A DNA stretch of 64,000 bases from an uncultured Acidimicrobiales bacterium (GTDB lineage Bacteria; Actinomycetota; Acidimicrobiia; Acidimicrobiales; SHLQ01). Below the pieces are notes generated by a model that ran no database searches, was not told where the DNA came from, and was given only the letters and a program-made list of their open reading frames with translations. Numbering within the stretch: the stretch's first letter is position 1; each line of letters opens with the position of its first letter. Location of the stretch: positions 8,891-72,890 of the forward strand of contig CAZFBD010000009.1 of the NCBI GenBank assembly GCA_964517125.1. The letters run 5' to 3'. Shown here piece by piece: positions 44,502 through 46,807 of the stretch. A program made the translations under genes and the position numbers.

Positions 44502-45389
44502 TCAGGTCCGGCTTGCAGCAATGGCGTGTTGAACTGCGGTGGCCGCAAGCAGGCGGGCCGTCCCGACATCATCGGACAGGCCCGCGTCCGCATCGATCGG
44601 TCGGCCGACGGCAACCAGCGCGTCACCATCTGCCGGCCCGTGCGCCGGGATGATCGCTCGGGCCATGCCGTCGTGGCCCGCTTGGGCCAGAAGATGGCAC
44701 TGAGCCTTCGAGAACCTGCCGTTCGTGACGACGAGTCCGATGGTCGTGTTCTCGCCAAGTGGCGAGTCCTCCTCGGGCCATTCGAAGGAACCGTCAGCGA
44801 TTGCCGCCGCAGTGCCTTGTCCCTGTGGCTCGGTCGTCAGGTCTCCAACCGCATTGACGGCGACGAGTGCACCCACGACGAGATCGTCGCGGCGGACCTG
44901 GGCCCAGGCAATGCCGGCATCTCTGGCAGCATCTGGGCCGCGCCACTTGCCGACGGTGGCTCCGGTGCCTGCGCCGACCGCACCGATCTCGAACGTCGTC
45001 GATGCATCCTCCAGAGCCACTGCCCCCTGTTCCGGACCAGGCCGTACAGCACCATCGCCAACGCCCAGGTCGAACAGCGACAGACCCACAACGATTGGGA
45101 CCCGTCCAAACCGGGTTTCGAACCCAACATCGGCCGCTGCCAGCGACGCCATGACTCCGTCGGCGGCGGCCAGCCCGAAGGCCGAACCGCCGGAAAGGAC
45201 GAGAGCATCGATGGACTGCACGGTGCGGGTTGGGTTGAGCAGACCGAACTCGCGGGTTGCGGGAGCACTCCCTCGAATTTCTCCGGACGCAACCACAGCC
45301 TCATCGAATCGGACGACCGTGCATCCGGTGCGGGCATGGCTGTCGGTCTGGTGCCCCACCCGCATCCACGGGAACGCCGTCTCGATCAT
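44502..45389 (-). CDS. P1 family peptidase (S58, DmpA/L-aminopeptidase-like)
   Basis: From ORF 44502..45446. I prefer the start at ATG 45389 (MIETAFPWMRVGHQTD) because the longer form would overlap the divergent selenoprotein start. Motifs are TGCTVVRF, GEIRGSAPATRE and LSGGSAFGLAAADGV. Confidence 0.75.
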   Translation of the reverse strand: MIETAFPWMRVGHQTDSHARTGCTVVRFDEAVVASGEIRGSAPATREFGLLNPTRTVQSIDALVLSGGSAFGLAAADGVMASLAAADVGFETRFGRVPIVVGLSLFDLGVGDGAVRPGPEQGAVALEDASTTFEIGAVGAGTGATVGKWRGPDAARDAGIAWAQVRRDDLVVGALVAVNAVGDLTTEPQGQGTAAAIADGSFEWPEEDSPLGENTTIGLVVTNGRFSKAQCHLLAQAGHDGMARAIIPAHGPADGDALVAVGRPIDADAGLSDDVGTARLLAATAVQHAIAASRT

Positions 45390-45440
45390 GTTCGACACCA
45401 CGGGACCTCCTGGGCGGCGATTGAGTGGCATGCTGGAACC

Positions 45441-45701
45441 ATGCACATCAGCATCACCTATTGCGTTCCTTGAGACTATTCATCCCGCGCCGTGAGCGCG
45501 GTCGACGATCTGCTCAGCAATTACCAGCACATCATTTCGTCGCTGACCCTGCACACGGGCGGCAGCGGTGTCTTTGATGTCGTCGTTGACGACGTGGTGC
45601 TCTACTCCAAGAAGCAGACTGGGCGCCACGCGAATCCCGGCGAGGTATTGGAGCTCTTCACCGCGGCCCACGCCGACGGTGTCGCCCGCTACGGGACCTG
45701 A
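45441..45701 (+). CDS. SelW/SelT/SelH (Rdx) family redox protein with in-frame UGA (putative selenocysteine at 45471-45473)
   Basis: ORF-track entry 45492..45701 (MSAVDDLLSNYQHIISSLTLHTGGSGVFDVVVDDVVLYSKKQTGRHANPGEV) is the Rdx-fold body without its redox motif. The same frame upstream reads ATG(45441) MHISITYCVP-TGA-DYSSRAV. This gives the family-defining I.YC..[C/U] motif, with U encoded by the TGA. Confidence 0.6.
45483..45505 (+). promoter_or_regulatory. candidate bacterial SECIS hairpin
   Basis: The stem pairs CCGCGC (45485-45490) with GCGCGG (45496-45501), with apical loop CGUGA having G at loop position 2. It can be extended by U45483-A45505 and C45484-G45504 across a 2-nt bulge. The stem starts ~10 nt after the UGA and the loop lies ~18-22 nt from it. 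Confidence 0.4.
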
Positions 45702-45716
45702 CCCGGCAGCTGCCCC

Positions 45717-46081
45717 GTGAGAGCCGACCGACTGATCGCTCTGCTCCTTCTGCTGCAGCAGAAGGGCCGGATCACGGCGGCACAGGCCGCAGAAGAACTG
45801 GAAGTCTCCACTCGTACCGCTCGACGTGACCTCGAGGCGCTCGTCATGAGGGGGGGTTCCCGTGTACTCCACCCACGGTCGCTGTGGCGGGTGGCAGCTG
45901 ATCGGTGGAGCGTCGACAGATCTCACCGGGCTGTCGGCCGACGAGGCGCAGGCGCTCTTTCTATCTGCTGGCCCTGCGCTGGACAGCACACCCGAGCTCA
46001 AGTCGGCCATGAGCACCTCCGGAGGACGTCAAAGCCGAGATGCGCCGGATCACCGCCGAGCTTCAGGATGTGTGGGGCTGA
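45717..46081 (+). pseudogene. remnant of a YafY/DeoR-type HTH (WYL-family) regulator, frameshifted at a G7 run and truncated
   Basis: Frame 1 (from 45717) reads RADRLIALLLLLQQKGRITAAQAAEELEVSTRTARRDLEALVMRG. After the G7 run at 45850-45856 the homology continues in the +1 frame, (G)VPVYSTHGRCGGWQLIGGASTDLTGLSADEAQALFL. A third frame ends ...APPEDVKAEMRRITAELQDVWG-TGA at 46079-46081. The total of ~120 codons compares with the ~320 expected, and no WYL domain is present. Confidence 0.5.
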
Positions 46082-46807
46082 TCAGGCGAGTGCGGCTGCA
46101 AGGGCGTCGGCGCCGGCGGCGAGGGCATCGATCTGCTCGCTGGTGAGCGCGCGGTAGTGGTCGGCCATGAGTTTGTCGGTCATGGCGTCGATGGATGCCA
46201 AGGTCTCGTGGTCGGCGTCGGTGGCCGACGGAAGTTCTTCCCAACCGAAACCCGCCCCATCCTCGGGGCGCCGGATGGCGTGGGCGAGAACCGGGTCCAT
46301 TCCGTGGGCGACGATGGCGACCAGGTGAACGCAACCTCGGAGCTCCCGAAGAACGATCGCGTTGAACATGGCCGCACCCTCGGCATCTGCGGGCGGGGCT
46401 TCCGCTGCGTAACCGGCGAACAACGAGAGCGCTGCCAGCGAAGCCGACTCGATCAATGCGGCAGAGGCGTCATTGAATGCGTCGAGCCCCTCGACACCTG
46501 CGAAACGTTCCCGGCCGACATCCTCAGCCCAGTCCAGATAGTTGCGGCTGGCGTCGCGGGGCGCCATGCGTGCGGCAGCCGAGTCCCACATCTTCTTGAC
46601 GAGTGCCGGGTTGAAGTAGCCGAACGCCGAGGCCACGACCGCCGATTCGACATCGCCGAGCACGCCGCCACGGCCGAGGAAGTACATGCGAAAGCCGTCG
46701 AGTCCAGCAGCCTTCGCCTTTGCGATCACTCCGGGGTCGAAGTAGTGAACGGCGCCAACGCCGTTCAGGACGGGATCGATTCGTGTCGCTGCTTCCTCAG
46801 GTGTCAT
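46082..46807 (-). CDS. conserved hypothetical helical protein (actinobacterial; family not confidently recognised)
   Basis: 241-aa ORF with clean coding character: MTPEEAATRIDPVLNGVGAVHYFDPGVIAKAKAAGLDGFRMYFLGRGGVLGDV... Confidence 0.6.
   Translation of the reverse strand: MTPEEAATRIDPVLNGVGAVHYFDPGVIAKAKAAGLDGFRMYFLGRGGVLGDVESAVVASAFGYFNPALVKKMWDSAAARMAPRDASRNYLDWAEDVGRERFAGVEGLDAFNDASAALIESASLAALSLFAGYAAEAPPADAEGAAMFNAIVLRELRGCVHLVAIVAHGMDPVLAHAIRRPEDGAGFGWEELPSATDADHETLASIDAMTDKLMADHYRALTSEQIDALAAGADALAAALA

Follow-up and report, generated by a model that had tools for sequence, protein, structure and literature searches.

At this locus the question is whether a TGA codon at positions 45471–45473 of the 64,000-nt stretch of DNA that we analyzed (the window) ends translation or is read as selenocysteine (Sec). 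As an earlier note on this DNA had said, the list of open reading frames contains only a 69-aa ORF running from GTG 45492 to 45701. The note had also read an ATG at 45441 in the same frame, and translation of 45441–45701 bore this out: it gives MHISITYCVP*DYSSRAVSAVDDLL...YGT*, in which MHISITYCVP is followed by the TGA and by DYSSRAV…, running into the 69-aa ORF. The position of this ATG agrees with that of the N-terminus in full-length homologues. The 69-aa ORF is found in databases as a protein (P0001) labelled "selenoprotein W-related protein" by JGI, from which gene callers have cut off the first 17 residues, and more than 110 of the 120 homologues listed are 69–70 aa long, so the truncation foreseen in the note is real. 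Our reading is that 45441–45701 on the (+) strand very probably encodes an 86-residue SelW-like/Rdx protein with Sec at residue 11, directed to the UGA by a SECIS hairpin at 45485–45501 (Table 1).

Table 1. Coordinates of the features discussed in the text (positions of the window)
Feature	Position	Strand	Remarks
Predicted SelW-like/Rdx selenoprotein CDS	45441..45701	+	86 codons including 1 Sec; stop TGA 45699–45701
CxxU redox motif TGC-GTT-CCT-TGA (Cys-Val-Pro-Sec)	45462..45473	+	Aligned to CTQC of PDB structures
In-frame UGA, probably read as selenocysteine	45471..45473	+	Conserved TGA; Cys (TGC/TGT) in other homologues
Spacer GACUAUUCAUC, UGA to hairpin	45474..45484	+	Nucleotide-level constraint
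Putative bacterial SECIS-type hairpin, 6-bp stem 45485–45490/45496–45501, loop CGUGA 45491–45495	45485..45501	+	bSECIS fit, covariation
Truncated 69-aa ORF called by gene callers	45492..45701	+	GTG "start" is a Val codon in the hairpin loop

The note had placed the protein in the Rdx family, and profile searches upheld this assignment. With U replaced by C for scoring, the PF10262 (Rdx) score rose from 33.6 bits for the 69-aa ORF to 59.3 bits with the TGA read through (cut-off 22.6; profile positions 2–71 of 74 covered), and TIGR02174 (CXXU_selWTH) scored 45.7 bits against a cut-off of 34.2. The best-scoring model, and the only one at equivalog level, was NF041051 (SelTWH_Campy) at 69.8 bits, under which we do not file the gene because this lies below the equivalog cut-off of 88. 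A sequence search of the PDB aligned ITYCVPC to the I(E/R/T)YCTQC of 3DEX, 2FA8, 2OKA and 2OBK, and the TGA column falls, as the note had anticipated, on the second Cys of CxxC in these solved Rdx structures (YCVP(U) versus YCTQC). The full-length homologues P0004 and P0010, like a deep Cys clade considered below, also have Cys at this column. The fold was tested on P0004, a natural Cys homologue that is 63% identical to the window protein. Its AlphaFold model (pLDDT 90.2) contains strands at residues 3–9, 34–41, 47–51 and 54–58, helices at 16–33 and 70–79, and CVPC at 10–13, an order (β1, CVPC loop, α1, β2, β3, β4, α2) that corresponds to a thioredoxin-like β-α-β-β-β-α arrangement. The best 21 Foldseek matches of this model were bacterial SelW-related structures (TM 0.76–0.89), with 2FA8, 2OBK, 2P0G and 3DEX at the top (TM 0.79–0.89). 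Mammalian SelW and MIEN1 (2NPB, 2LJK) share the Rdx fold (TM 0.64–0.68) and carry CxxU/CxxC in the same place, but at an identity of only ~23–27%, and eukaryotic SelW uses a 3′-UTR SECIS with SBP2/eEFSec. At the level of sequence, membership of the predicted window protein in the Rdx/SelW family is thus confirmed.

If the TGA were a genuine stop, the real product would be the 69-aa protein starting at GTG 45492, and the ITYCVP frame would be a leader peptide or a remnant. Every gene caller annotates this form, and GTG 45492 is invariant, as expected of a start codon; this invariance is, however, explained by the hairpin, since it is common to the neighboring GCC and AGC codons. The 69-aa product would lack the fold-defining β1 strand and CxxC/U motif, an absence noticed earlier and borne out by Pfam, the PDB alignment and the AlphaFold model of the homologue, and no Shine-Dalgarno-like, purine-rich ribosome-binding motif was found in the 15 nt before GTG 45492. 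Moreover, the upstream peptide is conserved in frame among 125 unique sequences. Its codons vary synonymously while the residues stay unchanged (GTC, GTT, GTG or GTA for Val−2; TAC or TAT for Tyr−4), which indicates that the segment upstream of the TGA is translated. Coding conservation is found on either side of the TGA in 80 genome loci, and this argues against orthologues starting at the equivalent of 45492, an outcome that the note had regarded as damaging to its proposal. Finally, the deep Cys clade encodes a single uninterrupted protein across the same position. We consider a genuine stop to be very improbable.

Next to this stands the conservation of the TGA itself. The sequence YCVP-TGA-DYS was found in frame in the window and in all 80 of the Acidimicrobiia genome loci fetched, and a relative is encoded in 578 species-representative genomes. 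When the genome and metagenome scans were pooled, 125 of 143 unique sequences had TGA and 16 of the other 18 had Cys. The TGA form also occurs on complete MAG chromosomes (e.g., OZ244166.1, OZ243946.1, OZ244139.1, OZ244202.1 and OY730477.1). This invariance in 125 unique orthologues, together with protein-level conservation upstream, supports the decoding of TGA as Sec proposed in the note. It also bears on the suggestion that the gene is a pseudogene or an assembly error, with the TGA arising from a recent nonsense mutation or a sequencing artefact. A homopolymer frameshift does lie ~150 nt downstream, in the neighboring HTH ORF, which means that the assembly is not error-free, but the same TGA recurs in independent genomes and metagenomes, and an identical 69-aa protein is found on two independent contigs. 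Judged from these sequence comparisons, a pseudogene or assembly error appears effectively refuted, and we give it next to no weight.

Among the 18 non-TGA sequences, 14 form a deep Cys-only clade. The remaining four have TGC, TGT, TCA (Ser) or GGA (Gly), each one base from TGA, and all four retain a perfect hairpin. The note had held that sense codons other than those for Cys or Sec would speak against Sec; such codons do occur, but as rare TGA derivatives that keep the hairpin. One genome with a Cys form is GCA_964344855.1. The Ser form (CVPS) is widespread, being present on 15 contigs. A database entry with apparent Trp (P0041) in fact has TGA, which was called as Trp.

We then consider the element downstream of the UGA. 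The sequence and geometry given in the note proved right: CCGCGC (45485–45490) and GCGCGG (45496–45501) enclose the loop CGUGA (45491–45495), the stem beginning 11 nt and the loop 17 nt after the UGA (loop at +18 to +22). Published constraints for bSECIS elements are a loop of 3–9 nt, a stem of 4–16 bp, a minimum free energy not exceeding −7.5 kcal/mol, and a G in loop positions 1–2 followed by U, 16–37 nt from the UGA (PMC13188914). The window hairpin satisfies all of these, with a 5-nt loop, G at position 2 followed by U, 6 bp, a distance of 17 nt and, for the hairpin alone, −10.2 kcal/mol. In the genome alignment, 77 of 81 minimal 17-nt folds agree with the model in their loop (CGUG followed by A, G or C), placement of the G and spacing. 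All of the bSECIS criteria were passed by 54 of the 81 minimal hairpins; all 27 failures miss −7.5 kcal/mol, 13 of them have fewer than four uninterrupted pairs, and four (L018, L034, L058 and L064) miss the loop criteria as well, via a register shift. RNAalifold recovered de novo only the three innermost pairs and did not support an extended lower stem. Rfam gave no match for the whole window at the gathering threshold or for 45400–45720 at E ≤ 10; as bacterial SECIS elements are poorly represented there, this negative is uninformative. The note had proposed folding 45468–45520 and looking for compensatory changes in orthologues. The single-sequence fold does not stand out (z = −1.34; matched by 20 of 200 shuffles of this 64.5% GC sequence), so that the significance of the hairpin rests wholly on comparative evidence, whereas the compensatory changes were found.

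The comparative evidence is strong and of several kinds. First, codons within the hairpin are frozen (GCC for Ala+6 and GTG for Val+7, each in 79 of 79; AGC for Ser+8 in 64 of 65), whereas at other, equally invariant Val, Arg and Ser positions of the gene the codon entropy is 1.0–2.0 bits. The spacer also differs between forms: Tyr+2 is TAT in 112 of 125 TGA forms versus TAC in 10 of 14 deep Cys-clade forms, and Ser+3 is TCN in the former versus AGY in the latter. Second, 92.5% of the hairpin cells in the 81-sequence alignment are paired, compared with 16–66% when the partner is slid by 1–2 columns; with the partner slid by +3, 41% are paired and the covariation score (0.125) equals that observed (0.120). 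Double-sided changes were found in 17 cells at four of the six pairs, and none of 500 shuffles, which ignore phylogeny, matched the covariation score. In the enlarged set, switches between C-G and U-A or between G-C and A-U occur at five of the six pairs, and parsimony on a tree built from ~190 nt suggests at least seven and at least three independent switches at two of them. Pairing is kept even where the peptide has changed (RTVSA with CGCAC/GUGCG; HAVRV with CACGC/GCGUG). Third, the hairpin is linked to the TGA. Of the TGA forms, 120 of 125 carry the exact core GCCGUGNGC, compared with 4 of the 18 sequences without TGA (Fisher p = 3e-12, a test that ignores phylogeny), and the loop column reads CGUG plus A, G or C in 124 of 125 unique TGA forms of the pooled set.

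Five full-length homologues served as an initial control but gave an ambiguous picture: the hairpin is retained in the Cys, Ser and Gly forms, and the "Trp" form proved to be TGA. A deeper Cys clade recovered in the metagenome scan settled the matter, as its 14 sequences lack both the hairpin and the RAVSA peptide. Their joint loss indicates that the RNA constrains the peptide, and not the reverse. Because the four non-TGA variants keep a perfect hairpin, a hairpin need not mean that Sec is decoded today. These results bear on the possibility that the hairpin is not a SECIS and is conserved through the RAVSA peptide and GC-rich codon bias, or through mRNA stability or translational pausing. 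CGC, GCC, GTG, AGC and GCG are all favored at 64.5% GC, and both the hairpin-bearing Cys, Ser and Gly variants and the non-significant single-sequence fold would fit this explanation. Against it, the gene's other invariant Val, Ala, Arg and Ser codons show free synonymous variation, the RTVSA and HAVRV changes preserve pairing while altering the peptide, and the deep Cys clade has lost hairpin and RAVSA alike. We regard a non-SECIS role as highly improbable. A SECIS, as proposed in the note, is supported by the fit to the published model, the frozen synonymous sites, the compensatory changes and the co-occurrence with TGA; a lack of hairpin conservation, which the note had named as grounds for abandoning the idea, was not observed.

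The nature of the inserted residue is a further issue, as UGA might be read as Trp, Cys or Gly without Sec machinery, with the hairpin as a generic read-through stimulator. Consistent with this, neither the window nor ~572 kb of related loci yielded Sec machinery. Specifically, ARAGORN found no tRNA-Sec in the 64-kb window or in 60 related loci (L002–L061); SelA, SelB, SelD and FdhA were absent from 20 large window ORFs outside the part covered by locus L001 (Pfam) and from the L001 gene table; and tblastn with E. coli SelA, SelB and SelD gave no match in the ~572 kb, as expected of such sparse sampling. The Cys, Ser and Gly variants indicate that the protein tolerates other residues, and P0041 was called with Trp. 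Several observations nevertheless oppose the use of a standard amino acid. The hairpin fits a specific bSECIS geometry that includes the G-U loop motif. TGA is the ordinary stop codon of the window, ending 34 of 40 long high-GC3 ORFs, which implies that the genetic code is not reassigned. CxxU is a documented SelW-like state at this column, with 427 Sec versus 56 Cys forms among GOS SelW-like proteins (Zhang & Gladyshev 2008, PMC2398784). The Actinomarinales, a sister order within Acidimicrobiia, are documented to have Sec machinery, with selA/B/C/D in 84 of 84 complete genomes (bioRxiv 10.64898/2026.04.03.716425). Lastly, relatives (L083 and L085) contain a gene of the UGSC selenoprotein family (PF24696; 149 bits with read-through; PMC2398784) that is absent from the window. 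Its TGA lies exactly at the U of UGSC, and its hairpin, GUGCA-GUG-UGCAC, lies 19 nt downstream. The UGSC protein is unrelated and has a UxxC motif; the in-frame TGA and the GUG-loop hairpin at nearly the same spacing, in the same lineage, suggest the same decoding system. We give read-through with a standard amino acid only a small chance, and we infer that SelB and tRNA-Sec are present in the source genome. The most abundant uncharacterized selenoprotein in the Actinomarina preprint is 78 aa long and could be an orthologue of the window gene.

With Sec decoding as the preferred reading, selenium would be inserted at UGA 45471–45473, and Sec 11 would complete the Cys-Val-Pro-Sec (CxxU) motif in the loop between β1 and α1, the protein presumably acting as a thiol/selenol oxidoreductase. 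By analogy with E. coli fdhF, the hairpin, a 6-bp GC stem within the CDS, would direct decoding by bringing SelB·GTP·Sec-tRNA(Sec) to a ribosome that has paused at the UGA. Standard gene callers end the frame at this codon and resume at the hairpin-loop GTG, which yields the 69-aa database product. The fdhF-type SECIS and bSECIS consensus (PMC13188914, Fig. 2) has in common with the window element a stem-loop in the CDS just 3′ of the UGA and a small apical loop with G at position 2 followed by U. However, the window element is very short (6 bp and a 5-nt loop), its binding by SelB is presumed, and neither a conserved lower stem nor a bulged U was detected in it, as RNAalifold supports only the core.

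Bacterial SelW-like/Rdx selenoprotein genes have been known since 2005 (Zhang et al. 2005, PMC1088965), and in the 2005 and 2008 surveys (PMC1088965, PMC2398784) SelW-like CxxU proteins ranked first in abundance among the bacterial selenoprotein families of marine metagenomes. The window gene shares with them the fold, the small size, the CxxU at the β1-α1 loop, the in-frame UGA with a coding-region hairpin downstream and the systematic mis-annotation, and Sec forms outnumber Cys forms here as in GOS. The Acidimicrobiia subfamily differs in its signature (YCVP-U-DYS, NYQH and RHA versus the YCTQC-xW usual in members from proteobacteria and Streptomyces), and a literature search found no published description of it in Acidimicrobiales, Ilumatobacteraceae or Microthrix. 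As SelW-like CxxU proteins rank with the most common bacterial selenoproteins known, the finding is correct but ordinary, and it changes no concept.

Mis-annotation at UGA codons is a textbook problem. Here, the gene and hundreds of its orthologues in Acidimicrobiia MAGs (Acidimicrobiales, Ilumatobacteraceae and Microthrix) are deposited as 69-aa fragments without the active site, and re-annotation would add a selenoprotein and mark the lineage as Sec-decoding. The dataset also offers a clean natural experiment in which a probable coding-region SECIS constrains both synonymous sites and peptide and is gone in the Cys-only sister clade. A broader proposal, which we put forward tentatively and consider rather doubtful, is that CVP-U Rdx is a class-wide ancestral Sec core gene (at least 578 species-level genomes), that its SECIS dictates RAVSA, and that Cys, Ser and Gly conversions, in genomes that still have the TGA-encoded UGSC protein, keep a perfect "fossil" SECIS. 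If so, either Sec would have been lost at this one site very recently and repeatedly while the Sec trait persisted, or the hairpin would have a second function, and the CVPS form would be a mutant occurring in nature that has no second redox residue. The gene may be truncated in essentially every public annotation.

The surroundings of the gene were also analyzed. A scan for promoters and terminators found nothing. The window was also scanned for further TGA codons that might be read through; the additional hits were taken, without being checked one by one, for neighboring genes in the same frame. Among 81 loci, the gene neighborhood of the window is unique, and in the absence of a conserved neighboring partner the context gives no functional inference. 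A DAGK-Rdx-rubrerythrin arrangement occurs in ~5 loci, and a gene for a SpoU-type methyltransferase lies downstream of the Rdx gene in 13.

The only ORF called at this locus starts at a GTG, and translation of 45441–45701 in the same frame gave MHISITYCVP*DYSSRAVSAVDDLLSNYQH...RYGT*. The earlier note had read the gene from an ATG at 45441 through an in-frame TGA at 45471, and every coordinate and reading in it proved correct. It had also expected gene callers to report a truncated product. Among the 120 database homologues listed, nearly all are indeed called at 69–70 aa with the same cut site, five being full length, and the JGI name for the truncated product is already "selenoprotein W-related protein." The window has a GC content of 64.5%, and its best relatives in a genome scan were Acidimicrobiia MAGs throughout. 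A reassigned genetic code was excluded because TGA is an ordinary stop codon here, ending 34 of 40 long high-GC3 ORFs of this genome (Pfam-confirmed genes included).

Features of the selenoprotein locus and of the loci compared with it (window positions unless a locus is named)
Feature	Position	Strand	Remark
S58 (DmpA-like) peptidase gene	44502–45389	−	JGI call; divergent from selenoprotein gene
In-frame internal stop TGA	45471–45473	+	Translation of 45441–45701
Spacer, UGA to hairpin	45474–45484	+	Nucleotide-level constraint, equivalent columns in all loci
Hairpin 5′ stem CCGCGC	45485–45490	+	Pairs with GCGCGG
Hairpin loop CGUGA	45491–45495	+	Sequence reading
Hairpin 3′ stem GCGCGG	45496–45501	+	Pairs with CCGCGC
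Sole called ORF at locus	45492–45701	+	GTG start, 69 aa; ORF list
P0041 coding loci	L087:444–716, L088:428–700		Divergent member NYHPQASRAAAD, TGA in DNA
Sec-to-Cys (TGC, TGT), Sec-to-Ser (TCA) and Sec-to-Gly (GGA) forms	L082:289–558, L083:10001–10291, L085:10001–10270, L089:76–348
Deep Cys-only clade members	L137, L149, L150, L152, L157, L158, L161, L164–L169, L171
UGSC-family gene, PF24696	L083:1978–2523, L085:2617–3156		Split by callers into two ORFs at in-frame TGA

Scanning species-representative genomes turned up 578 relatives; the 80 loci kept are all from Acidimicrobiia, Acidimicrobiales, Ilumatobacteraceae or Microthrix MAGs. Their tblastn matches begin at query residues 1 to 3 and therefore cross the stop, and all 80 loci and the window carry an in-frame ...YC(V)(P)-TGA-(D/N)Y.... 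Specifically, Val-2 (counted from the TGA codon) is encoded by GTC (40), GTT (24), GTG (13) or GTA (2) and Tyr-4 by TAC (67) or TAT (12), with both residues fixed. Such synonymous variation around fixed residues marks the stretch upstream of the TGA as translated.

Next to the Pfam Rdx profile (PF10262), the 69-aa ORF scored 33.6 bits and matched only from profile position 22 on; with the 17 upstream codons added and U written as C, the score was 59.3 bits and the match spanned positions 2–71 of 74. NCBIfam TIGR02174 (CXXU_selWTH) gave 45.7 bits (cut-off, 34.2), and the top NCBIfam match, the Campylobacter-type equivalog NF041051, gave 69.8 bits, below its cut-off of 88, so the gene was not filed under it. 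In a PDB sequence search, I-T-Y-C-V-P-[U] aligned with I-x-Y-C-T-Q-C in the Rdx structures 3DEX, 2FA8, 2OKA and 2OBK; the TGA column thus corresponds to the second Cys of CxxC, in line with the CxxU motif and Rdx membership originally proposed. Structure was modelled for P0004, a natural full-length Cys homologue (CVPC) with 63% identity. This model (pLDDT, 90.2) comprises β1 (3–9), CVPC (10–13), α1 (16–33), three strands and α2, and its best 21 Foldseek matches were bacterial SelW-related crystal structures (TM, 0.76–0.89; rmsd, 1.4–1.8 Å), followed by MIEN1 and mouse SelW.

The GC-rich hairpin that had been described downstream of the UGA is present exactly as read, with its stem 11 nt and its loop 17 nt from the UGA, and on its own (45485–45501) it folds at −10.2 kcal/mol. 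The bacterial SECIS (bSECIS) model specifies an apical loop of 3–9 nt on a 4–16-bp stem, a G in loop position 1 or 2 that is usually followed by G or U, a UGA–loop spacing of 16–37 nt and an MFE of ≤ −7.5 kcal/mol (PMC13188914), and the window hairpin agrees with all four requirements. As the fold of a single GC-rich sequence it is unremarkable (z = −1.34; 20 of 200 shuffles equally stable), so the case for a SECIS must be comparative.

We therefore turned to a gap-free alignment of 81 sequences (the 80 loci plus the window), in which 92.5% of stem cells are paired. Sliding the 3′ partner by 1–2 columns left 16–66% of cells paired; sliding it by +3 left 41% paired, yet gave a covariation score of 0.125, equal to the observed 0.120. 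The observed score was reached by none of 500 column shuffles, and double-sided changes occur at four of the six pairs (17 cells). RNAalifold alone supported only the inner three pairs in this alignment and gave no sign of a lower stem. On a neighbour-joining tree from which the hairpin was left out (~190 nt, making switch counts approximate), parsimony suggests that the outer pair switched between C-G and U-A independently at least seven times, and pair 27–37 at least three times. The strongest single test for RNA-level constraint is the comparison of synonymous sites. Codons inside the hairpin are nearly frozen (Ala+6 GCC, 79/79; Val+7 GTG, 79/79; Ser+8 AGC, 64/65; Arg+5 CGC, 63/67), and codon bias was ruled out as the cause because equally invariant residues elsewhere in the gene vary in codon, with entropies of 1.0–2.0 bits (Val+36, 1.35; Val+38, 1.04; Ser+45, 1.62; Arg+51, 2.02). 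Covariation and frozen sites both favor the SECIS-like element that had been predicted.

The DNA of the five full-length homologues served as a first control for whether the hairpin is tied to Sec. In P0041, whose column reads "Trp," the DNA has TGA and the gene was called under another code (TGA read as Trp); its hairpin, GCCUCC-CGUGC-GGCGGC, lies 3 nt further downstream and keeps the CGUG loop on a different peptide. The Cys (TGC, TGT), Ser (TCA) and Gly (GGA) forms are each a single base away from TGA, and all four have a perfect hairpin. The Ser form, in which the second redox residue is absent, occurs on 15 contigs, Tara samples among them, and the Gly form on one contig of 573 bp. With this control alone, conservation of the peptide could explain the hairpin as well as a SECIS could. 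For a second control, the Cys form was used to query metagenomes, which added TGA forms and a deeper clade with Cys alone (YCVPCDYS...); 143 unique 69-nt segments were pooled. The exact core GCCGUGNGC is found in 120 of 125 TGA forms, the other five having compensatory (CGCAC/GUGCG), wobble or shifted hairpins, and the loop CGUG[A/G/C] in 124; TGA forms average 5.47 of 6 pairs with a median MFE of −8.7 kcal/mol. In comparison, the hairpin is absent from the deep-clade Cys sequences (14 of 18 non-TGA forms; 1–4 of 6 pairs, 0 to −5.7 kcal/mol), and the only non-TGA forms with it are the four one-base derivatives (Fisher p = 3e-12, uncorrected for phylogeny). These four are best read as recent conversions with a fossil SECIS. 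The deep clade, from sediment and soil metagenomes, belongs to the same subfamily (YCVPCDYS...NYQH) and is variable where Sec forms have RAVSA, with AQAFRVT, EHALAAA or similar peptides in its place. Watson-Crick switches occur at five of the six pairs in the enlarged set, and because several of them alter the peptide (RTVSA, HAVRV) while pairing is kept, the RNA structure appears to constrain the protein sequence and not the reverse, with the hairpin tied to TGA.

The spacer also differs between forms: Tyr+2 is TAT in 112 of 125 TGA forms versus TAC in 10 of 14 deep-clade Cys forms, unlike Tyr elsewhere in the same gene, which prefers TAC; for Ser+3, TGA forms use TCN and the Cys clade uses AGY; and Pro-1 favors CCT. 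This constraint may reflect UGA context or an extended SECIS.

With respect to Sec decoding, we found no tRNA and no sel genes in the 64-kb window, no tRNA-Sec among 60 scanned loci (L002–L061), and no tblastn match to authentic E. coli SelA, SelB or SelD in 572 kb of related DNA. On L083 and L085, a UGSC gene that callers split into two pieces, both matching its family, lies about 8 kb upstream of the Rdx gene, which has the Cys (TGT) or Ser (TCA) form. Read through as EALAD-TGA-GSC-TTC, this UGSC gene has TGA exactly on the U of UGSC and matches the family at full length (149 bits). A GUGCA-GUG-UGCAC hairpin follows, its GUG loop 19 nt beyond the TGA (18 nt in the Rdx gene); a common loop and spacing in two unrelated selenoprotein families would be expected for one SelB. 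Since the UGSC gene keeps TGA at U, these genomes apparently still decode Sec despite Rdx having switched to Cys or Ser. In Actinomarinales, another order of Acidimicrobiia, selA, selB (divergent), selC and selD are reported present in 84 of 84 complete genomes by a 2026 preprint (bioRxiv 10.64898/2026.04.03.716425). The UGSC gene of relatives and this machinery lend good, indirect support to Sec decoding in the lineage. That preprint gives as its most abundant predicted selenoprotein family a 78-aa protein, labelled "uncharacterized" and without a UniRef90 match (bioRxiv 10.64898/2026.04.03.716425), which may be the Actinomarinales orthologue of the window Rdx selenoprotein.

SelW-like proteins in GOS comprise 427 Sec versus 56 Cys forms (PMC2398784), and it has been proposed that the family originally carried Sec (PMC1794560); we found no publication on the family in Acidimicrobiales, Ilumatobacteraceae or Microthrix. 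Judged from sequence comparison, the window gene is a predicted new member, or sub-clade, of the already well-known SelW-like selenoproteins, and the earlier note's observation and its interpretation as a putative SelW-like selenoprotein with a SECIS are both upheld.

The CxxU motif and thioredoxin-like fold suggest a thiol/selenol oxidoreductase role; the physiological substrate is unknown for the whole SelW-like/Rdx family (PMC1088965). No conserved gene neighbourhood was apparent among the 81 loci: the window gene adjoins a tsaEBD-groES/EL cluster, and in some relatives the Rdx gene lies after a DAGK-like kinase and before a rubrerythrin. Only ~51 nt (45389–45441) separate its ATG from the JGI-called start of the S58 peptidase, and leaderless transcription is possible because no sigma-70-like promoter was detected there. 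Downstream, an HTH_11/DeoR-type regulator fragment (45717–45857; 37.3 bits) within 45717–46146 (+), absent from the JGI gene table, is broken at a G7 run (45850–45856), where one added G would restore ...EALVMRGGVPVYSTHGRCGGWQL...; the break either stems from misassembly of the homopolymer or marks a pseudogene. The 3′ end of this ORF overlaps a convergent HTH_67 gene (46082–46807, minus strand).
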